DNA of 64,000 bases from an uncultured bacterium. Lineage in GTDB: Bacteria > Zixibacteria > MSB-5A5 > UBA10806. The stretch is taken from NCBI GenBank assembly GCA_965541585.1, contig CBEUCH010000004.1, forward strand, positions 64,001 through 128,000, given 5' to 3'. This document shows positions 1 to 9,343 of the stretch, in pieces. The position numbers and the translations under genes are program-made. The first letter of the stretch is position 1; the number at the start of each line of letters is the position of its first letter. The notes under the pieces are model-generated. The model did no database searches. It was not told the origin of the DNA and saw only the letters and a list, made by a program, of their open reading frames with translations.

Positions 1-286
1 CAGCGTTCAAGCCTTTGATACATTGGACGCCCTTGTTGGTTGGATGTTGTTTATCGGGTATCACTCCGAGGATCCGCCCGGTCTTGTCCGCCTTGATTAT
101 AGTGCCGCAACCTACCCCGCAATAAGGACACTGGCTGATCAAGCTCTGGGCGACCGGTGAGAGCTCGCCTACTTCCGCCAGCAGTTTCTCCGGAGCGAAA
201 ATAGCCGAACCCAGTCCCAGAGCGGTCGCGCCGGCAACCGAACCCCTCAAGAAATTTCTTCTGGTAACTGATCCCTTTTTCGGCAT
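1..286 (-). CDS. Tat-exported molybdopterin oxidoreductase catalytic subunit (NapA/FdhA-like), 5' part only; not in ORF track
   Basis: Manual translation from ATG at 286: MPKKGSVTRRNFLRGSVAGATALGLG... (twin-arginine signal), then CPYCGVGC and HPTNKGVQCIKG, the N-terminal [4Fe-4S] motif of nitrate reductase/formate dehydrogenase. Frame is open to the window edge. Confidence 0.85.
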   Translation of the reverse strand, partial: MPKKGSVTRRNFLRGSVAGATALGLGSAIFAPEKLLAEVGELSPVAQSLISQCPYCGVGCGTIIKADKTGRILGVIPDKQHPTNKGVQCIKGLNA

Positions 287-293
287 GGCAGAA

Positions 294-2816
294 CTACTCC
301 TTCCCTTGCTTTATAAATGCAATAACATCATTGACCTCTTTGCCAGTGAATTCAGTGAGACCACCGCCACCCCTCATCATCGAACGCATAGCCGACTCAT
401 GCCGTCCCAATGACATTGTCGCCTGCAAGTACCCCACAGACGCCGCCTTGACAAAATCCGGCCTCAGCAGATCCGGGGCAAAAGAGCCACTGTGATGGCA
501 TTGGCTGCACTGCCTTTCATATACCTCCGCGCCTATTTGCGGCGTGCCGACAACGTATTTGGGGCCTATTTCATCCTCATCTTTAGTGCGAAGATAGTTT
601 ACTATTCCCATGGCGGTATTCATATCGATTTCAACGAAACCGCCCCTGCCGAATTTTTTCATCTCGCTTCCGTCGCGACCCGACATCATCATGGCAATTA
701 TGAAACCGTCGGAGGTCATCTCCAGGAAGCCCGGGCGGCCTATGCCGGGACCGTTACCACCGCCACCCCCGGGACCGTGACATTGCGCGCAAAAACGATT
801 GAAATCGTCTCGTCCGTTAATACTCTCGCCCGGTATGGTGCTGATTCCGACGAAAACCGGAGGATTATCTTCGAATGTTCTTATATAAGCGACAATATCA
901 TTTATCTCTTTCCTGGTGAGATCGACTGTACCGTCCCGCCCTTTTAGATTTCCTTTCATCGGAGATCCGGTACGTCCGTATGCAATCATCTCCCATATAA
1001 ATTCGTCGGATGCCGTCTTGAGAAAATCATGTGAGGTTATAGACGGTCCAACGTAGCCTCGACCTGATTCCCCATGGCACTGCGCACAGATTCTATCGAA
1101 CAGTTTCCTGCCGTTGAATTCAGAGCCATTGATTTTCATACTTGTTGTGCCGGTAACCGGTCCTCGATATCCGGAACGTAAAAACGAGACGATATCGCCA
1201 AGCGACTTTGCTCCCAGATAATTATAGCTCCCCATCGCCGTCCCGCGTCTGCCTCCGGTTAATGTCGCATGCAGGAACCTGCTATTGGCGAAGCGCAGGA
1301 ATTCGGGAGAATTCAAGGACGGCCCTATACCTCCCTCGGCGTTATCGCCATGGCAGGATGCACAATTTTCAGAGTAGACTTTTTGTCCCGTTCTCGCGGA
1401 GCCGTTTTGAATAGCGCGTCGGAACGAGGCGTAACTAATAACAGGATAGCGCCAGGAATCCATATATTCCAGCAGGTCGGCCAGGTCATATCTGGAGAGG
1501 AAGTTCCAGGCGGGCATGGCGGTGCCGGCTCGGCCTTTGATAATCGTTTCGTAAAGCAGCCGGTTATTCATAAGGGAAAGAAGCTGCGGCGATAGGAGCG
1601 TCGGCCCGATCATGTCCGTCTCATAATCGCCGTCGATTCCGTGACAACCGGCACAATTAGAATTGAAAATAACCCGCCCGTAGCCGACCTCACCTTTCGT
1701 CTCAACTACTTCTTTATAAGCAGGAGCTTTTTTTCTAAGAGACAACACATATGATGCTATCTTGTCGATTTCAGGATTCGATAATCCTCCACCCCGCCCC
1801 CAGGCCGGCATGATCGCAGATCCGGACCCCGAAATTATGGCGCTCAAAAACGCCTGGTCAGCAATCGCCAAAAACTGCGGGTTGCCAAGAGCCGGTCCCA
1901 TCTTGCCGAGTTCCGTGTAATTTGTTCCGCCGCCTTCCTTGCCGTGACAGGCGGAGCAATAGCTCATATAGAGATCGCGTTTTGTCTCCTCTATTGTTCC
2001 GGACGAGGCTATCATGCCTTCGGGGATAGAGAATTCCTGAAACGACTTCATGTAGACTGTCAGGTTTAATGCTTCCTGTTCGGAAAAGCCATAATCTATC
2101 ATTCCCGATGAATCCGGCTGGATTTTCGGTTGATATACCGACTCGAAAATAAAAGCCATGTTAACATTGCCGTCAAAGCGATCTATATATTCATCCGCGT
2201 TATCGGGATGAGGACGTTTCAGATGGAATGACGCCTGGCCGATTGTGGTAAGATCAGGCCCCAGAGAACCACCTCGTCCACGCACTTTATGACATCCCTG
2301 GCAGCCGTTTTCTTTAAAAAGCCGTTCACCTCTCTGGTACGCGCCGGAGAGTTCCGGCATATCCGATCTATGGCAGCGGGCGCAATTGGCCTCCAAAAAC
2401 GGCGGCATTAATACCGGTTCTTCCCAGAATTCGATAAAATGGCTGACAGCGTGCTCGAAATCGGTGGCGCGCCCCTGTCCGTCGTGACAGATCGTACATC
2501 CGAAAATATTCAGATCGTGTTTTTCGAGATAGTCACCCGGATGGGTTTTTAACGGGTTATCGAGCTCGACAGCGCGCGGGTCGGTTATGGAGACGTGACA
2601 GATTACGCAACGGTCGATCTTATCTATTTCCGGCAAGACCAGTTGACGATAATCTATTTTGAACTCAGATCCCGAATCTGTATCTGACACGAAATCGGAG
2701 TATTGACGCTGATAACTTTTCCATTCCGGGGTGAGAAACTCGGCGGCGGCCCCGATCAGAAGTAACACAATTACCAGGGAACTGGCCCAGAACATCAGTT
2801 TTTTTGTCGCGTTCAT
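294..2816 (-). CDS. Membrane-anchored decaheme cytochrome c
   Basis: N-terminal hydrophobic helix and ten CxxCH motifs (CVICH, CTICH, CARCH, CQGCH, CSACH, CAGCH, CASCH, CAQCH x2, CSQCH). The C-terminal ones lie in repeated class-I-like domains with GP.L and MP motifs. Confidence 0.92.
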   Translation of the reverse strand: MNATKKLMFWASSLVIVLLLIGAAAEFLTPEWKSYQRQYSDFVSDTDSGSEFKIDYRQLVLPEIDKIDRCVICHVSITDPRAVELDNPLKTHPGDYLEKHDLNIFGCTICHDGQGRATDFEHAVSHFIEFWEEPVLMPPFLEANCARCHRSDMPELSGAYQRGERLFKENGCQGCHKVRGRGGSLGPDLTTIGQASFHLKRPHPDNADEYIDRFDGNVNMAFIFESVYQPKIQPDSSGMIDYGFSEQEALNLTVYMKSFQEFSIPEGMIASSGTIEETKRDLYMSYCSACHGKEGGGTNYTELGKMGPALGNPQFLAIADQAFLSAIISGSGSAIMPAWGRGGGLSNPEIDKIASYVLSLRKKAPAYKEVVETKGEVGYGRVIFNSNCAGCHGIDGDYETDMIGPTLLSPQLLSLMNNRLLYETIIKGRAGTAMPAWNFLSRYDLADLLEYMDSWRYPVISYASFRRAIQNGSARTGQKVYSENCASCHGDNAEGGIGPSLNSPEFLRFANSRFLHATLTGGRRGTAMGSYNYLGAKSLGDIVSFLRSGYRGPVTGTTSMKINGSEFNGRKLFDRICAQCHGESGRGYVGPSITSHDFLKTASDEFIWEMIAYGRTGSPMKGNLKGRDGTVDLTRKEINDIVAYIRTFEDNPPVFVGISTIPGESINGRDDFNRFCAQCHGPGGGGGNGPGIGRPGFLEMTSDGFIIAMMMSGRDGSEMKKFGRGGFVEIDMNTAMGIVNYLRTKDEDEIGPKYVVGTPQIGAEVYERQCSQCHHSGSFAPDLLRPDFVKAASVGYLQATMSLGRHESAMRSMMRGGGGLTEFTGKEVNDVIAFIKQGKE

Positions 2817-2831
2817 TCCCGATTACTCCGC

Positions 2832-4400
2832 TTAATGGACCGGCCATAGCGATGGCCACCAGTAAAAATCCCAGTTCGGGCCTCGATGGACAGTTGCGAA
2901 ATACGTTAAAATCATAAACCCGACAATAAAACAGGTAAATATGGCAACGGCACCGAGGCGGGTTGAGCCGGATCGATTGAGGATCCGAAGAGACCACCAG
3001 ACGAAAGCCCCGGTCAATATGGTTCCGGGATTGATCGCAATAATTATTATCTGCGGAATATTCGGGAACCAGTTGCGCAGCCAGCCGAAAATGATAGTGA
3101 ACGCAAGCATAACGACAATGCAAATCGACGAGAATATAAGAGAATCTCTGAATATTTTTTTCTCGCTCTTATCGGGGAACCACAATCCCGATTCGCCCCG
3201 TGTCCTGTCCAGAAACGGAATAAGGATTATGCCCAATACTGCTATTCCGGGAATTGCCATTCCGCCAATAAATGCCGAATACGATACCAGTTCCTGAAGC
3301 CCCAGAAAATACCATGGGGCCTTGGCAGGATTTTCCGGCACCAGCGGGTTGGCAGCCTCTTTCAAAGGTGCATTGGAAATGAATGACAAAGTAATCACGG
3401 CCGCCAGCATGATGGCGAAAACCGCCATTTCCGCATGGAACAGATGCGGCCATGAGGCTACTGTTTTATTCGGGCCATTATTGACGTTGTTACCGGAGCC
3501 CTTGATAATAGCCATCAGACCATACGTTTTCCCCTCTGTGGGGAATGCCATCTCCGCTTTTTCATCCCTTGGGGTGTTTATCAACATATCTTCAGAGATA
3601 ACCGAGGGGCGCGACAGCCCGCCGTCTTTTCTGATTCGCCAGAAATGAACGCCGATCAAGGCTGTCATGGTTAGCGGCAGGAAAACGCAATGCAGGAAAT
3701 AAAATCTGATAAGCGCCTCCTCCCCCACGACATCGGCGCCAAGCAGAAGAAGCTTTTGCAATCGTCCTATATCAAAAATGCCTGTGATTCCCAGTGCATC
3801 TGTAAGTTCGGTGGGCGAGGCCGCTATCTGAGTCCCGATAGTAGTTGCCCAGTAGGCCAACTGGTCCCATGGCAAAAGATAACCTGTAAATGAAAGAGCA
3901 AGAGTCAACGTGAACAACAGCATACCGATCATCCAGTTGAATTGCCGGGGGAACCTGTATGATCCTGTATAGAAAACTCTTACCATATGAAGGATCACCG
4001 CTATTACCATTCCGTGTGCCGCCCAGCGGTGAACGTTTCTCATCAGCCTGCCACCCGGAACCGCGAAATGAATATCCTTAATGGAATTGTAGGCGCCTGC
4101 TGCGGACGGCTTATAATATATCATCAATAATACACCGGTAACGGCAAGAATAATAAACAAAGCCGCGGTGGCTACTCCAAGGCCCAGCGTAAAAGTTTTC
4201 TTCAGACTATATCTGTGGGTCCGAACCGAATGAATGTGCAAAAACAGATTCCCGAACACCGACTGGGAAACCGCCCGGGCAGATGTTCTTGGCCCGTGGC
4301 GAATTGTCGATTCTTTAAACGACTTCGGGAGCCTCTTTATATTGGCTTTAAATTTCTCAAAGCCACTGATCGAATTTGCCGGCGTCGTTTTATCAGGCAT
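2832..4400 (-). CDS. Cytochrome b of a Rieske/cytb complex (b6-like domain fused to subunit IV)
   Basis: Heme ligands in RNVHRWAAH...ILHMVR and FLH-x14-HFWR; GYLLPWDQ motif; Qo motif variant KAPWYF. Start placed at ATG 4400, overlapping the Rieske stop. Confidence 0.92.
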   Translation of the reverse strand: MPDKTTPANSISGFEKFKANIKRLPKSFKESTIRHGPRTSARAVSQSVFGNLFLHIHSVRTHRYSLKKTFTLGLGVATAALFIILAVTGVLLMIYYKPSAAGAYNSIKDIHFAVPGGRLMRNVHRWAAHGMVIAVILHMVRVFYTGSYRFPRQFNWMIGMLLFTLTLALSFTGYLLPWDQLAYWATTIGTQIAASPTELTDALGITGIFDIGRLQKLLLLGADVVGEEALIRFYFLHCVFLPLTMTALIGVHFWRIRKDGGLSRPSVISEDMLINTPRDEKAEMAFPTEGKTYGLMAIIKGSGNNVNNGPNKTVASWPHLFHAEMAVFAIMLAAVITLSFISNAPLKEAANPLVPENPAKAPWYFLGLQELVSYSAFIGGMAIPGIAVLGIILIPFLDRTRGESGLWFPDKSEKKIFRDSLIFSSICIVVMLAFTIIFGWLRNWFPNIPQIIIIAINPGTILTGAFVWWSLRILNRSGSTRLGAVAIFTCFIVGFMILTYFATVHRGPNWDFYWWPSLWPVH

Positions 4401-4854
4401 GGAAAACCCCTTTTGTTCCGGGTTTGACATAGGAGTTCAGATCGATCTCCACCTGGCCCGAAGGAAGCTGCACTACTTTATGCCAGTTCAAGCCTTTCGG
4501 CGCCGGGCCCTTAGTCACATTTCCTCTACCTCCAAACCTGGAACCGTGACATGGGCAATCAAATCCGCTTCCGGTCCAGGCAACAACGCATCCCAAATGG
4601 GTGCATGTCGTTGATATAGCGTAAATCCCTTCATCATCGGAGAAAACGATTACTCTTTCCTTTTCGAAAGGTTTTACTGTCCCGGCCGGGTAATCCGATG
4701 CCGGTCCCAGTTTAATCTTCTTCGTCTCCTGCGGCAATAGTGTGGGAAGAGTAAACCTGGCCAGCGATGCTATCCAGATTCCGATAGCCCCGATAAACGT
4801 TGCGGGCGCGAATTTCGACAAGAAATCGCGTCTTGATTTCCTTTTTCCCTCCAT
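4393..4854 (-). CDS. Rieske [2Fe-2S] subunit
   Basis: Tat motif SRRDFL, transmembrane helix, CTHLGC and CPCHGS boxes. Confidence 0.95.
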   Translation of the reverse strand: MEGKRKSRRDFLSKFAPATFIGAIGIWIASLARFTLPTLLPQETKKIKLGPASDYPAGTVKPFEKERVIVFSDDEGIYAISTTCTHLGCVVAWTGSGFDCPCHGSRFGGRGNVTKGPAPKGLNWHKVVQLPSGQVEIDLNSYVKPGTKGVFHA

Positions 4855-6693
4855 TTATGGACCCACCTCGCAAAAGGTTACTCTTTCCATAGTCACGGCC
4901 CCGACAGGGCACCGTTCCGCGCAACAGGCGCATCTGATACACGACGTTTCATCCTTAATAATGGCAGAATCATTTTCGGCAAAGCCAATATCCGCCAGCT
5001 TTACCGCGTCGCCGTTTATCTCCAGATCTTCTAAGGATACAATCTTCAAACAGAACTCAGGACAGACGTCCACACAGCCTCCACAGAGAACGCAGGCCTC
5101 TCCGTTGAAAATCGTATTTACGCCGCAATCGAGACATCGGCTCGCCTCGGTAAGTGCCTCCCTGTCGGAATAGCCAATCTCAACAACGGGGTATCCGGAT
5201 TTCAAACGTTCCGAAGGTTCAATTGTGGGGATGTTTTGACGCTGGATCTCTTCGTAGGATGCTTCGCGGGCGTAGTTTTCGATTTCCGTATGATCGATTT
5301 CAAGTTCCGGCTCGAAATCTCTTTCCGGAAGTCCAGCGGCGATGGTTCTGGCTACCTTCTTGCCGTGGGCTACGGCATCAATAACCAACCTTGCACCGTA
5401 GGCGCAGTCGCCTGCGAAAAATAACCACGGCCACTCCGTGCTGCCGTCCTCATTAACATCGACGAAGCCTCTTTCATTTAATTCCACCCCGTCGCGCTCC
5501 GGTCTGATAAACGATAGATCTATTTGCTGGCCTACTGAGAGGACTACGGTATCGCAGCGGATTTCACTGATCTCCTTTTCATCAAAGGTCGGCGCGAAAC
5601 GGCCCTTATCGTCAAGTACAGAAACGCATTTTTTGAATTTAACGCCTGCTATTTTGTCATTTTCAATGATAATTTCGCTTGGCCCGATTGAAATATGTCG
5701 GATAATCCCTTCCTCTTCTCCCTCGAGAATCTCCATCTCGTCAGCAGGCATCTCTTCTAAGGATTCCAGACAGCAAAGGTGGACTTCCCTGACGCCCCTG
5801 ACTCGTTTTGCCTGCCGGGAAACATCGAACGGCTCGTTGCGCAGGATGGTTCTTCCCACATCGTAAGCAACCGACCCTCCGCCTATAACAACAACCTTCT
5901 CTCCCAGTCTAACGTTTTCTCCGAGGCTCACGGCGCGAAGAAATTCAACGCCTCCCAGTATATCATGATGATCCGCTCCCGGCATAGGCAGTTTCCTTGA
6001 GCGCTTGGCTCCAACGGCAACAACAACAGCGTCATACTCCGTGGCGAGCTCGTTCAATTGAATATCTTTGCCAACTGTGATACCGGTTTTGAATTCCACT
6101 CCCAAGGTCTCTATAATTTCAATCTCCGCGGAAATAGTATCGCGTGGAAGACGGTAATCCGGAATACCGATAGCCAGCATGCCGCCCTTAACGTTTTCAG
6201 CTTCGTAAACTGTGGGAGTAAAGCCTAATAACGCCAGGTCATGTGCACAGGCAAGCCCTGCCGGCCCCGAGCCGATTATCGCCACCTTAATAGCGTTCTT
6301 TTTGCCCGGATAATCATAAGCGGTAAGCTCTTCTCTGCTTATGTTTTCGCGGTTTGTTACGTATTGGCGGATGTTTTCCAAAAGCTTTGACCTCTCCTCG
6401 TTACCGTGCCCCTGGAAATATTTTTCGGCCGCAAAACGTTTCAAGGCTCTTATTGAAATAGGCTTATCTATATCCCCTCGCCTGCAATTGACCTCACAAG
6501 GGGCGGCGCATATTCTGCCGCAAATCGACGCCAGGGGATTCGGTCCCCTGGCTATCAAATAAGCGTTTTCAAAATTGCCATTGGCGACAGCACGAACATA
6601 ACCCCTGGCATCCGTACAGACTGGGCAAGCGTCCTGACATTTTATCTGTTTCTGCCAATAGCCGTTATCCGGTATTTCAACACGGTAACTCAT
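4855..6693 (-). CDS. FAD/NAD(P)-dependent Fe-S oxidoreductase (GltD/NfnB/SudA family) with C-terminal 2x[4Fe-4S] ferredoxin
   Basis: CQDACP and ICGRICAAPCEVNC clusters; GSGPAG and GGGSVA dinucleotide motifs; CVLCGGCVDVCP and CIRCACCAERCP. Confidence 0.9.
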   Translation of the reverse strand: MSYRVEIPDNGYWQKQIKCQDACPVCTDARGYVRAVANGNFENAYLIARGPNPLASICGRICAAPCEVNCRRGDIDKPISIRALKRFAAEKYFQGHGNEERSKLLENIRQYVTNRENISREELTAYDYPGKKNAIKVAIIGSGPAGLACAHDLALLGFTPTVYEAENVKGGMLAIGIPDYRLPRDTISAEIEIIETLGVEFKTGITVGKDIQLNELATEYDAVVVAVGAKRSRKLPMPGADHHDILGGVEFLRAVSLGENVRLGEKVVVIGGGSVAYDVGRTILRNEPFDVSRQAKRVRGVREVHLCCLESLEEMPADEMEILEGEEEGIIRHISIGPSEIIIENDKIAGVKFKKCVSVLDDKGRFAPTFDEKEISEIRCDTVVLSVGQQIDLSFIRPERDGVELNERGFVDVNEDGSTEWPWLFFAGDCAYGARLVIDAVAHGKKVARTIAAGLPERDFEPELEIDHTEIENYAREASYEEIQRQNIPTIEPSERLKSGYPVVEIGYSDREALTEASRCLDCGVNTIFNGEACVLCGGCVDVCPEFCLKIVSLEDLEINGDAVKLADIGFAENDSAIIKDETSCIRCACCAERCPVGAVTMERVTFCEVGP

Positions 6694-7118
6694 TTCCTCT
6701 TGCCTTTGGCATTTGAGGGAGTGGATAGGTCGGCAAGAGTCATTTTTTTTGACCTGGTCAGTATCTCTTTTCTAAAACTGCCCCAGGATTCGTGAAAAAT
6801 ACACGAATCTTGCCCTGAACAGCTTTTCAATCCCAAAACACATTCTTCCTTCAGGTTTGTAACGCCGCCAAGAACTTTCAAAATATTATACAGGGTTACC
6901 TTTCCGGGGTCAATCGAGAGTGTCACCCCGCCATTTGGCCCTTTGGTGGAGGTAATGAGCCTTTTTCTCCCCAGATCCGTCAGAACCTTAGCCAGAAAAT
7001 GCGCCGGAATATCAAGTTCACTCGCCACTTCCTTTGCTTTTACAATAGTACCCCTGGGAAGGCCGGCGAGATATCGCAGAGATTCAAGGGCGTAGACGAT
7101 TGACTGAGGATAGATCAT
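6690..7118 (-). CDS. Rrf2-family transcriptional regulator with three C-terminal Cys
   Basis: wHTH with IPAHFLAKVL and STKGPNGG; C-x6-C-x5-C; first gene of the operon. Confidence 0.9.
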   Translation of the reverse strand: MIYPQSIVYALESLRYLAGLPRGTIVKAKEVASELDIPAHFLAKVLTDLGRKRLITSTKGPNGGVTLSIDPGKVTLYNILKVLGGVTNLKEECVLGLKSCSGQDSCIFHESWGSFRKEILTRSKKMTLADLSTPSNAKGKRK

Positions 7119-7301: not shown

Positions 7302-9200
7302 CTAATCCTCCTCAAGCAGTGTTTCCAGTTCATCAACCAGGCTGCTGAAAAGCTGAATAGTATGTAAAATCGGCTCCGGCTTCGTCATATCAACGCCGGC
7401 GTCCTTTAAGATATCGACCGGATATTTGGAGGAGCCGGTGGAAAGGAATTTCATATAAGTATCAAGATACCCCTGGTCACCATCGACAATCTTCTGCGAC
7501 ATCAGCTGTGCAGCGGCATAACATGTAGCGTATTGATAAACATAGTACTGCCAGTAGAAATGCGGTATGACCATTCCCAGGTTCCCGCTTAATTCATCCA
7601 CCGACAAAGCCTCGCCCCAGTATTTCATGTATATGTCTGAAAACGTTTTCCGGAAATAATCCGCTGAGAAAGCCCCTCCGTTTTCCATATGCGTATGAAT
7701 GGCCAGCTCAAATTCGGCAAACATCGTCTGTCGGAAAAATGTCGTTCGGATCTCCTGAATATAGAAATTCAGCAAAAACATTCTTTGTTTTTTGTCTTTG
7801 GCGCTCTGCAAAAGGTCTTTCAAGAGAACTGCCTCGGCGCAGGTTGAGGCCACTTCCGCAACAAAGATCGAATAACCCGAATAAATGTACGGCTCGGTTT
7901 GATTGACATAAAATGATTGCATAGAGTGACCCATCTCATGAGCAAGCGTAAAGACTCGATCGATCGTACCGTTGTAATTAAGCAGAATGTACGGTGGAGA
8001 AGTATAACTTCCGCCGGAGGACGCGCCGGATCTTTTACCCTCGGTTTCGAAAACATCAATCCAGCCGGAATTGAGCCCGCTTTTGAAATCGCTGATATAT
8101 GGCTCGCCCATCGGCTCCAGACCTTCGATGACCATTTCCATCGCCTGCTCGTAGCTATATTCCGTATTCTGATCGGGTATCAGGGAGACATAAAGATCAT
8201 ACGGATAGAGTGTGTCGTATCCGAGAACTTTCTTTTTGAGCGATGCCCATTTGTGAAGCGGCTCCAGATTGGCATTGACCGTTTCGATTAGATTATGATA
8301 GACGGATAAAGGAATATTATTGTTCGCCAGAGCCATTCCAAGACAGCTTTCATACCCACGGGCTTTCATGTAGAAATTGTCCTTGTTAAGTGCTCCGCCC
8401 AGCGAAGTCGCAATAGTATTGGCATACTTTTCGTACGTACCATAGAAAGCTATATGCGTGTCGTGTCGTACCCGGCGGTCGGTCGATTTGCGTAATTTAT
8501 TGTAACGCTCCTTGGTCAACTCGACCAGACTGCTGTCTTCGTCATATACCGTCCCGAATGACATATCGGCGTTGGTGAGCATTGAATATATCCGGCCGGG
8601 AGAATAAGCGATCGACCCCGACAGCGCCAGGATAGCCTCTTCCGGTGGTGACAGAATATGCTCCTGCTGGCGAATCAGATCTTCAATGTAAAAACGATAT
8701 ATATCCAGTTCTTTCTTTTCGGCCAGAAAAGTCTTTAGCTTTTTGGAATCGATACTGAGCAGTTCCGATTCCATAAATGATGAGGCGTGGCGAAACTTCG
8801 ACCCGAGCGCCCTTATCCTACCGGATAATTCCTGCCAGGAGTTAACACGAGTATCCTCGCTCAATTTCCGCCCGGCGTACGTGGAAAGATTGTCTGCAAT
8901 TATACTTATTTCTTCATTTAGTTTGAGACATTCATACAGAATATCTCCGGATTCCCCTAAACGGCCTTTGTAGCTTTCCAGACGCGCATAATTATTTTCG
9001 ACAAAACTAAAATCATTTTCCCAAGCCTCGAGATTCGGGTACATTAGTTCCAGATTCCATTTGTATTTATCATCGATATCCGAACGCTGCGGAATCTTTT
9101 TGGTTTCAGCCATAAGGCGGGCAGGCGATGTTATCATCACCGTCAGCAGAATAATTGAAATTATTCCGATACGAAATGACCTTGGTTGGTTCATGAGCAT
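7302..9200 (-). CDS. pepF: Oligoendopeptidase F (M3B) with signal peptide
   Basis: KYKWNL start motif, WIDVFETEGKRSGA, HEMGH zinc motif, AEVAST, PHFY, YVYQYA. Start codon uncertain. Confidence 0.92.
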   Translation of the reverse strand: MLMNQPRSFRIGIISIILLTVMITSPARLMAETKKIPQRSDIDDKYKWNLELMYPNLEAWENDFSFVENNYARLESYKGRLGESGDILYECLKLNEEISIIADNLSTYAGRKLSEDTRVNSWQELSGRIRALGSKFRHASSFMESELLSIDSKKLKTFLAEKKELDIYRFYIEDLIRQQEHILSPPEEAILALSGSIAYSPGRIYSMLTNADMSFGTVYDEDSSLVELTKERYNKLRKSTDRRVRHDTHIAFYGTYEKYANTIATSLGGALNKDNFYMKARGYESCLGMALANNNIPLSVYHNLIETVNANLEPLHKWASLKKKVLGYDTLYPYDLYVSLIPDQNTEYSYEQAMEMVIEGLEPMGEPYISDFKSGLNSGWIDVFETEGKRSGASSGGSYTSPPYILLNYNGTIDRVFTLAHEMGHSMQSFYVNQTEPYIYSGYSIFVAEVASTCAEAVLLKDLLQSAKDKKQRMFLLNFYIQEIRTTFFRQTMFAEFELAIHTHMENGGAFSADYFRKTFSDIYMKYWGEALSVDELSGNLGMVIPHFYWQYYVYQYATCYAAAQLMSQKIVDGDQGYLDTYMKFLSTGSSKYPVDILKDAGVDMTKPEPILHTIQLFSSLVDELETLLEED

Positions 9201-9343
9201 GCTTCCTTTGCTTGAATGTTGTTTGATTCCAATCATGATGTCGATAATATATGAAAATCCCGGCTATAATAAAAAGTGTTTATTAGCATTAAATCTCATC
9301 TGACCCAGCTGCCACCAGCGGGGACACCAGGTATTGGGGGCGA

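Follow-up and report, generated by a model that had tools for sequence, protein, structure and literature searches.

How are a Rieske/cytochrome b complex, a cytoplasmic flavoprotein, a ten-haem cytochrome and an exported molybdoenzyme wired together when a single operon encodes them all, and in which direction do the electrons run? The question is raised by a 64,000-nucleotide stretch from an uncultured bacterium of the Zixibacteria (the window; genome G000, contig C4, positions 64001-128000), which opens with six open reading frames on the minus strand, neighbours overlapping slightly or separated by gaps of no more than 15 bp (Table 1). All six frames are confirmed, their families by Pfam and NCBIfam profiles, and the tight coupling, coordinates, families and APWY motif of the cytochrome b are as an earlier note on this DNA had described them. 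The molybdoenzyme gene is cut by the left edge of the window and was therefore read on beyond it, where it is intact. The best explanation as a whole, held tentatively and at a little under an even chance, is a nitrate-respiring, quinol-fed operon with bifurcation to NAD+.

Read to its end, the operon comprises ten same-strand genes, the last of which meets a convergent porin gene. The genes downstream of the molybdoenzyme (napG-like to polyferredoxin) recur beside the same enzyme elsewhere, and since napG-like and napH-like genes belong to this very operon, the contrast with NapGH-fed Nap drawn in the earlier note falls away. The operon has neither napB nor napC, and napD was not found in the genome. 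The order from flavoprotein through Rieske protein, cytochrome b and cytochrome c to molybdoenzyme recurs in Planctomycetota, Calditrichota and Gemmatimonadota, which argues that the operon is more than a chance arrangement; the expected conservation of the gene set is thereby borne out across phyla. The genomes compared include kin, so the counts here and below are not independent. Within the host's phylum, 7 of 285 genomes carry the enzyme, host included, and the nine-gene order is complete in five of the six others (in one across two contigs), the sixth being in contig pieces. The molybdoenzyme was not found in any of the 13 other genomes of the host's family. A recent foreign origin of the operon was considered, and composition gives no signal of it (GC 49.6% vs 48.7%).

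Centred on the enzyme, the scan contains 17 loci of its clade among the 80 loci listed: four have the flavoprotein-Rieske-cytochrome b-cytochrome c genes (hereafter the module), ten a dihaem cytochrome directly upstream, and six a five-CxxCH NapC-like gene, confirmed as NapC/NirT by Pfam at L005 and L006. Fourteen of 401 Planctomycetota genomes carry the enzyme, five with the module (one rearranged), three with actA/actB-like genes and three with other cytochromes; the last three are assigned to none of these groups. Among 151 genomes sampled from the phylum of a Calditrichaceae genome there are four carriers; the three examined all have the module, and the fourth was left out. Centred on cytochrome b, the set comprises 38 fused proteins at 52% identity or higher. 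A flavoprotein gene lies on the same strand near 34 of the 35 of these with at least 800 bp upstream, and a molybdoenzyme gene follows in 23 of the 26 with at least 5 kb downstream. These 23 molybdoenzymes divide into 8 of the window's lineage (the enzyme itself having been the query for 4 of these), 12 NxrA-like and 3 of DMSO-reductase type II. A sister cytochrome b clade, accompanied by a flavoprotein of this kind, is followed by clade II nosZ, called by TIGR04246 above its cut-off at L120, L121 and L122. The varied partners in both surveys mark the module and the molybdoenzyme alike as exchangeable. The pairing of such a cytochrome b with an oxidoreductase is thus too widespread to be characteristic of anammox bacteria, as had been supposed, and PMC5600118 likewise reports cytochrome b genes near NAD(P)-binding oxidoreductases 'in many other cases'. 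(Papers cited by PMC number are drawn on through excerpts, and statements about them extend to these.) Two observations stand beside the surveys. At L120, L121, L122, L222 and L226, a sister flavoprotein-Rieske-cytochrome b-pentahaem module lies directly before the nosZ gene, and at L248 an AioA/IdrA-like molybdoenzyme gene (Rieske_3 and molybdopterin domains) lies upstream of the module. A PilJ-like fusion at L013 was left out as an apparent assembly join.

The molybdoenzyme has a twin-arginine translocation (Tat) signal, an N-terminal [4Fe-4S] motif, a Cys197-Met198 pair at the molybdenum and a GQP motif. It resembles periplasmic NapA (PDB 2nya, 2jio, 9pxt) in its signal, and both NapA and Nas/NarB in the [4Fe-4S] motif, the Cys-Met pair, GQP and the channel Arg/Asp. 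Its identity to annotated NapA is about 30%, and to the best 120 of 5349 database matches 62-100%. Placed in a tree, as the earlier note had proposed, it forms its own clade with 26 rows (100/100, stem 0.88) beside monophyletic NapA and Nas (second tree: 43 rows). It lies outside the Nas clade (a sister relation is unsupported, 56/22) and has a Tat signal, unlike the cytoplasmic Nas/NarB. The tree does not settle its position among NapA, Nas and FdhH, and a sister relation to NapA or to Nas is neither shown nor rejected (approximately unbiased test, p 0.46-0.48). By sequence it makes up a third lineage alongside NapA and Nas. The residues listed for the channel of Campylobacter jejuni NapA are Arg174, Asp191, Glu192, Arg463, Arg471 and His715 (PMC12769810). 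Four of the five alignable residues are kept (R195, D212, R418, R426); Thr213 occupies the Glu192 position, and His715 falls outside the aligned stretches. An acidic residue precedes the channel arginine, which in NapA it follows. One carrier, L012, has a NarX/NarL-like pair divergently upstream, with a putative likeness to the P-box. Nitrate is the probable substrate.

The flavoprotein joins a GltD/NfnB fold to a C-terminal 2x[4Fe-4S] ferredoxin domain. In this fold, YRR at the dinucleotide site is read as an NADP(H)-type motif and an acidic motif as NAD(H)-type. The window protein has CLE at this site; its two best solved relatives (9bov, 9n5u), Escherichia coli GltD and an NfnB-type protein have YRR, and E. 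coli PreT, annotated as NAD-dependent, has VARE. The window flavoprotein is predicted to be NAD(H)-type. Among 80 cytochrome b-linked flavoproteins of at least 500 residues, 15 have YRR, 64 have LE and 1 has neither, and all 15 with YRR adjoin a split cytochrome b with CxGG. In a tree of the window protein, 39 linked rows chosen from the 80 and 11 others (quick search), it belongs to a 14-row clade (SH-like approximate likelihood ratio test, SH-aLRT, 100) inside a 32-row cytochrome b-linked group, and the members of this clade sit with the matching cytochrome b clade. The clade lies apart from GltD, AegA, PreT and NfnB. Identity with a stand-alone GltD or NfnB was rejected on this grouping, on the missing YRR motif and on the operon, which holds no gltB or nfnA-type partner gene; the grouping with stand-alone GltD that had been named as a possible refutation did not appear. 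The same motif and the same missing NfnA-type gene speak against the link to NADPH and ferredoxin that had been envisaged. At L255-L257, a cluster of anammox-like type (six- and eight-haem partners, CxGG) has a flavoprotein with LE that groups with the non-anammox clade.

Cytochrome b has the four haem histidines with b6 spacing and, at the Qo site, APWY (KAPWY where PEWY is expected). It is fused to a subunit-IV part, and a glycine takes the place of the CxGG cysteine that holds haem cN, so that the usual b6f-type cofactor is missing at the quinone-reduction side. In a tree of the window protein and 54 rows chosen from 132, it falls in a 17-row clade (100/100), separate from the Kuenenia-type rows. 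The Rieske protein has an RRDFL anchor; after the second cluster motif the Ser is kept and the Tyr is replaced by Phe, as in Kustd1480 of Kuenenia stuttgartiensis, which was measured at +335 mV (PMC12954380). The ten-haem cytochrome c has a single membrane anchor and a tri-haem head, followed by seven class-I/CcoP-like domains with a conserved Met. The best solved matches are CcoP and QcrC-type domains, and relatives in the same operon type carry 8 or 10 haems. Of the haem wire proposed earlier, the ten haems stand; the anchored tri-haem head and class-I-like domains differ from an MtrA-type wire.

The closest described relatives are the complexes of K. stuttgartiensis, Kuste4569-4574 and Kustd1480-1485, for which an extra haem at the cytochrome b dimer interface, held by His and Arg residues, is predicted (PMC12954380; PDB 9rk3, 9rk4). 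In two loci of the survey, L258 and L265, gene order and residue numbering agree with those published for Kuste4569-74 and Kustd1480-85 (His43/Arg247/Arg511 and His62/Arg266/Lys267/Arg550), and the L265 Rieske protein matches 9rk3 over the aligned stretch. In the window, cytochrome b His65 aligns with His43/His62, and Arg267/Lys268 with Arg247 and Arg266/Lys267 (532-aa numbering). Flavoprotein Arg594 aligns with Kustd1483 Arg550; Kuste4570 Arg511 aligns with Gly539 and is thus not carried over. The two systems share a related cytochrome b6, an extended subunit IV, a GltD-fold FAD/iron-sulfur oxidoreductase, a multihaem cytochrome c partner, a Rieske protein with the Ser and the His/Arg of the predicted haem. 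The window complex differs in its fused cytochrome b without the CxGG cysteine (split b6 and subunit IV with haem cN in Kuenenia), in CLE instead of the Kuenenia-type YRR, and in having a ten-haem class-I-repeat cytochrome with a molybdoenzyme as terminal partner instead of an HAO-like octahaem protein. The kinship to the Kuenenia complexes asserted in the earlier note is upheld by the gene kinds and predicted-haem residues in common, with the two sets of proteins in separate clades in both the cytochrome b and the flavoprotein trees. His65 is kept in 129 of 132 cytochrome b rows, the exceptions being two truncated proteins and one of an unrelated PEWY type. Since it occurs whether or not a flavoprotein gene adjoins, it marks the subfamily and does not prove docking, and it was rejected as a marker of flavoprotein presence. 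The KTYGLM linker motif, tried as a docking marker, does not correlate cleanly, occurring in 44 of 68 cases with a flavoprotein and in 7 of 16 that lack one.

In the favoured reading, the Rieske/cytochrome b complex would oxidize menaquinol. The first electron would pass from the Rieske protein through the ten-haem cytochrome to the exported molybdoenzyme, which would probably reduce nitrate; on the sequences, this wiring is held with good confidence. The second electron would cross the membrane to the flavoprotein, likely attached there, and reduce NAD+. Following the model of the homologous Kuenenia complexes, the low-potential path may run from haem bP to bN, to the extra interface haem (His65), through the iron-sulfur chain to FAD and on to NAD+. 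NapGH may provide a second, non-bifurcating quinol route. The NADH so made would be reoxidized by complex I or spent in biosynthesis, so that each nitrate would yield more conserved energy than through NapC or a simple Q cycle. The forward direction, quinol to molybdoenzyme, is fairly strongly inferred, because elsewhere the neighbours of this enzyme lineage include NapC-like genes or those of alternative complex III, and both modules oxidize quinol. For the flavoprotein branch, three points favour the exit to NAD+: homology to the Kuenenia complexes as modelled, the absence of haem cN and a Rieske protein of high-potential type; by this analogy the NAD+-reducing direction appears evenly balanced with its alternatives.

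Several observations weigh against this reading. Most enzyme carriers are without the module (13 of the 17 listed loci; 9 of 14 in Planctomycetota, two of them on short contigs). The cytochrome b-linked flavoproteins overall do not form one clade (3 changes), 2 of the 17 members of the window's cytochrome b clade have no flavoprotein gene alongside (L169, L170), and at L238 that gene lies on the opposite strand. Estimated with menaquinone at ~-75 mV and nitrate at ~+420 mV (PMC6195509), a Rieske potential of ~+335 mV by analogy and an assumed membrane potential of 150-180 mV, bifurcation with nitrate would be marginal, near the limit that thermodynamics sets. Nor is there an obvious shortage of NADH in an organotroph that has complex I. 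The only menaquinone-synthesis gene found is menA-like; none of menB, mqnC and mqnA/D was above cut-off in the host genome, so the host may obtain the naphthoquinone head group by salvage. On the enzyme side, the protein scores far below the curated NapA hidden Markov model cut-offs (336/904 and 315/931 bits), Thr, Ile and Leu replace Glu192, Met417 and Glu464 of C. jejuni NapA, and a canonical NapA is present as well in three of five proteobacterial carriers. Taken together, these enzyme features mean that the substrate may differ from nitrate. Monomeric NapA-type controls likewise miss the NapA cut-off, at 685-711 bits.

The alternative that survives best keeps the same wiring and reverses the flavoprotein: electrons from NADH would enter cytochrome b and the quinone pool via the interface haem, giving a self-contained NADH-to-nitrate chain or a redox valve that bypasses complex I. 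The NAD(H)-type motif of 64 of the 80 linked flavoproteins, set against the NADP(H)-type YRR of the Kuenenia-type proteins, suits such an input, as do the organotrophic look of the host, with its bzd-type benzoyl-CoA reductase, and the downhill course of the reaction, which does not need haems of very low potential; a role toward menaquinone has also been raised for Kuenenia (PMC5600118, citing de Almeida 2016). However, it would waste energy that the complex I present would conserve, an argument made in PMC12954380, the loss of the haem-cN cysteine weakens the quinone-reducing site on the cytoplasmic side, and the high-potential-type Rieske motif suits bifurcation. We regard NADH input as possible but unlikely.

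A different doubt concerns the enzyme itself, which might reduce another oxyanion (chlorate, selenate, iodate or similar) or run reversed, oxidizing a periplasmic donor and driving uphill NAD+ reduction through the APWY complex. Its separate lineage with changed second-shell residues leaves room for this, and reverse operation has been proposed for APWY complexes (PMC4122944), a further point against the favoured direction; the same module also fronts NxrA-like enzymes. The enzyme co-occurs with canonical NapA and, in the host, with an NxrA/NarG-like enzyme, and one Calditrichaceae genome carries both the window's system and a nap cluster of Caldithrix order, so that redundancy or another substrate is possible. 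Against this, the enzyme retains the Cys-Met ligands and the channel arginines known from nitrate reductases; NapC-, alternative complex III- and NapGH-type neighbours indicate a quinol donor, the NarX/L-like neighbour in L012 speaks against another substrate, and the nosZ partners of the sister clade suit the forward direction alone. Another substrate or a reversed enzyme is thus improbable.

Least probable of all, and doubtful even given an experimental precedent in Campylobacter and a genomic one in Caldithrix, is that the flavoprotein is merely co-regulated and an ordinary Q cycle feeds the molybdoenzyme, an idea that gains from the flavoprotein-free L169/L170 and from His65 in cytochromes b without an adjoining flavoprotein (the host's cluster on contig C25 among them) and loses to the same-strand flavoprotein at 34 of 35 loci, to the dedicated 14-row flavoprotein clade (SH-aLRT 100) that matches a cytochrome b clade, and to the co-migration of the Kuenenia subunits cited in PMC12954380. 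L169 and L170, which have a divergently transcribed octahaem cytochrome, are natural controls for the role of the flavoprotein.

Bifurcation coupled to nitrate, the preferred reading, joins parts with separate precedents. In C. jejuni, the QcrABC Rieske/cytochrome bc complex has been shown to feed Nap (PMC6195509). There too a periplasmic nitrate-reductase-type enzyme is fed by a Rieske/cytochrome bc complex, but the enzyme is canonical NapA and Qcr a shared respiratory complex, whereas in the window the complex is a dedicated one, an NAD-linked flavoprotein is encoded with it and the enzyme is of another lineage. The nap cluster of Caldithrix abyssi (napM-napA-napG-napH-Rieske-cyt b-eHao; PMC5317091) also combines a Nap-type enzyme, NapGH and Rieske/cytochrome b, with no NapB or NapC. 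Identity with it was rejected: a Caldithrix-order cluster in Calditrichaceae (L328) has a conventional 752-aa NapA, no flavoprotein and a cytochrome b nearest the host's PEWY type, and the Calditrichaceae genome has the window's system separately from it. The APWY clade was defined as uncharacterised (Kao and Hunte 2014, PMC4122944), and the long cytochromes b of clade G' in subfamily G were placed in large conserved operons of unknown function, with molybdopterin domains among the neighbours named in the legend of Fig. S1 (Dibrova 2017, PMC5600118). The window shares with these groups the APWY motif, a long cytochrome b in a large operon, an adjoining NAD(P)-binding oxidoreductase and several copies per genome (four cytochrome b clusters in the host). 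In the excerpted accounts, neither a function nor a cofactor preference nor a NapA-like partner is given, and the likeness is one of motif and operon. An undescribed system, as the earlier note had it, is therefore too strong a claim, both halves being precedented (APWY cytochrome b with a cytoplasmic oxidoreductase; Rieske/cytochrome b feeding Nap). No description of this operon or enzyme lineage was found in the literature covered in excerpts, PMC12769810, PMC10100899 and PMC3903129 included; ten Brink 2013, Kartal 2013 and de Almeida 2016 lie outside that coverage and may already draw similar operons. What was not found described is the combination of these published building blocks, the third Nap/Nas lineage and an NAD-type, haem-cN-less complex of anammox type.

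The host is non-anammox, as had been assumed, in that no hydrazine synthase alpha domain was found in its 98% complete genome. It encodes a bzd-type benzoyl-CoA reductase, complex I with NuoF, and an aa3 oxidase with alternative complex III, which is at odds with its earlier description as an anaerobe; it is likely a facultative organotroph. Its four Rieske/cytochrome b clusters are that of the window and three others. About 20 kb left of the operon end lies a flavoprotein-Rieske-cytochrome b-octahaem cytochrome cluster (L115) at 43-44% identity to the window's, beside which no terminal enzyme gene was recognised. The third (L116) has a split cytochrome b/subunit IV, no flavoprotein and no CxGG cysteine, and the fourth (L117) is of PEWY type with a nine-CxxCH partner. 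Elsewhere in the genome, a periplasmic NxrA/NarG-like alpha-gamma-beta-delta cluster (L321) follows an rrf2 gene and precedes 20- and 28-CxxCH cytochromes, and a molybdopterin oxidoreductase is fused to a NifS-like cysteine desulfurase in a single 1177-aa reading frame (L318).

At the operon's right end, rrf2 is a variable member: it lies upstream in L015, L016, L018, L326 and L327, and no rrf2 match adjoins the flavoprotein in the five of five same-phylum loci that cover that gene (L339-L343). The oligopeptidase F gene upstream of it shows no sign of operon membership. A purine-rich stretch upstream of position 4400 makes this the probable start of the cytochrome b gene. A promoter and terminator scan of the 3' half gave nothing usable.

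Table 1 Coordinates of the operon genes and of other features mentioned in the text. Positions without a contig name are those of the window.
Feature	Coordinates	Strand	Description
rrf2	6690-7118	-	Rrf2-family regulator, 142 aa; PF02082 and TIGR00738 above cut-off
Flavoprotein	4855-6693	-	612 aa, cytoplasmic FAD/FeS; 4-bp overlap with rrf2
Rieske [2Fe-2S] protein	4393-4854	-	153 aa; 0-bp gap to flavoprotein gene
Cytochrome b (b6 and subunit-IV part, fused)	2832-4430	-	likelier start 4400, overlap with Rieske gene 8 bp
Ten-haem cytochrome c	294-2816	-	840 aa; 10 CxxCH; 15-bp gap to cytochrome b gene
Molybdoenzyme, 5' end	1..286 (start 286)	-	7-bp gap to cytochrome c gene; RRNFL twin-arginine motif
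Molybdoenzyme, whole	G000 C4:61626-64286	-	intact, 886 aa, predicted Tat-exported and Cys-ligated
napG-like	C4:60977-61597	same strand	outside window, after molybdoenzyme
napH-like	C4:60082-60993	same strand	outside window
Exported protein, His-His/YtkA-like	C4:59529-60119	same strand	196 aa; outside window
Polyferredoxin	C4:57972-59528	same strand	NapH-related FeS membrane protein, 518 aa; outside window
Oligopeptidase F (M3)	7302-9236	-	183 bp upstream of rrf2
menA-like	C4:180280-181278		menaquinone synthesis
L115	G000 C4:32630-38625		second Rieske/cytochrome b cluster of host
L116	G000 C25:14658-20251		third cluster
L117	G000 C2:119760-122588		fourth cluster
L321	G000 C18:41119-47517		NxrA/NarG-like cluster
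L318	G000 C1:4410-7943		molybdopterin oxidoreductase/NifS-like fusion
L248	G064:C42 4311-13120		module and AioA/IdrA-like gene

In a broader and speculative view, which we consider rather unlikely, the module would be a plug-in, quinone-based bifurcating unit, widespread in non-anammox bacteria and joined to this enzyme lineage, to NxrA-like and DMSO-reductase type II enzymes and to NosZ. NAD+ reduction would take the place of the Qi site, and the module together with complex I would act as a Q cycle of higher yield; the enzyme lineage may have a substrate of its own. NAD(P)+ reduction by a Rieske/cytochrome b complex has been proposed for anammox since 2013 and is still based on the potentials of isolated Rieske domains and on models (PMC12954380). 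A version encoded together with an assayable periplasmic reductase outside anammox would offer a direct test of this debated bifurcation. The molybdoenzyme lineage is large and misses the NapA/Nas cut-offs, and it has likely been overlooked in surveys of the nitrogen cycle. If the favoured reading is true, the energy yield assumed for periplasmic nitrate (and N2O) respiration would rise.

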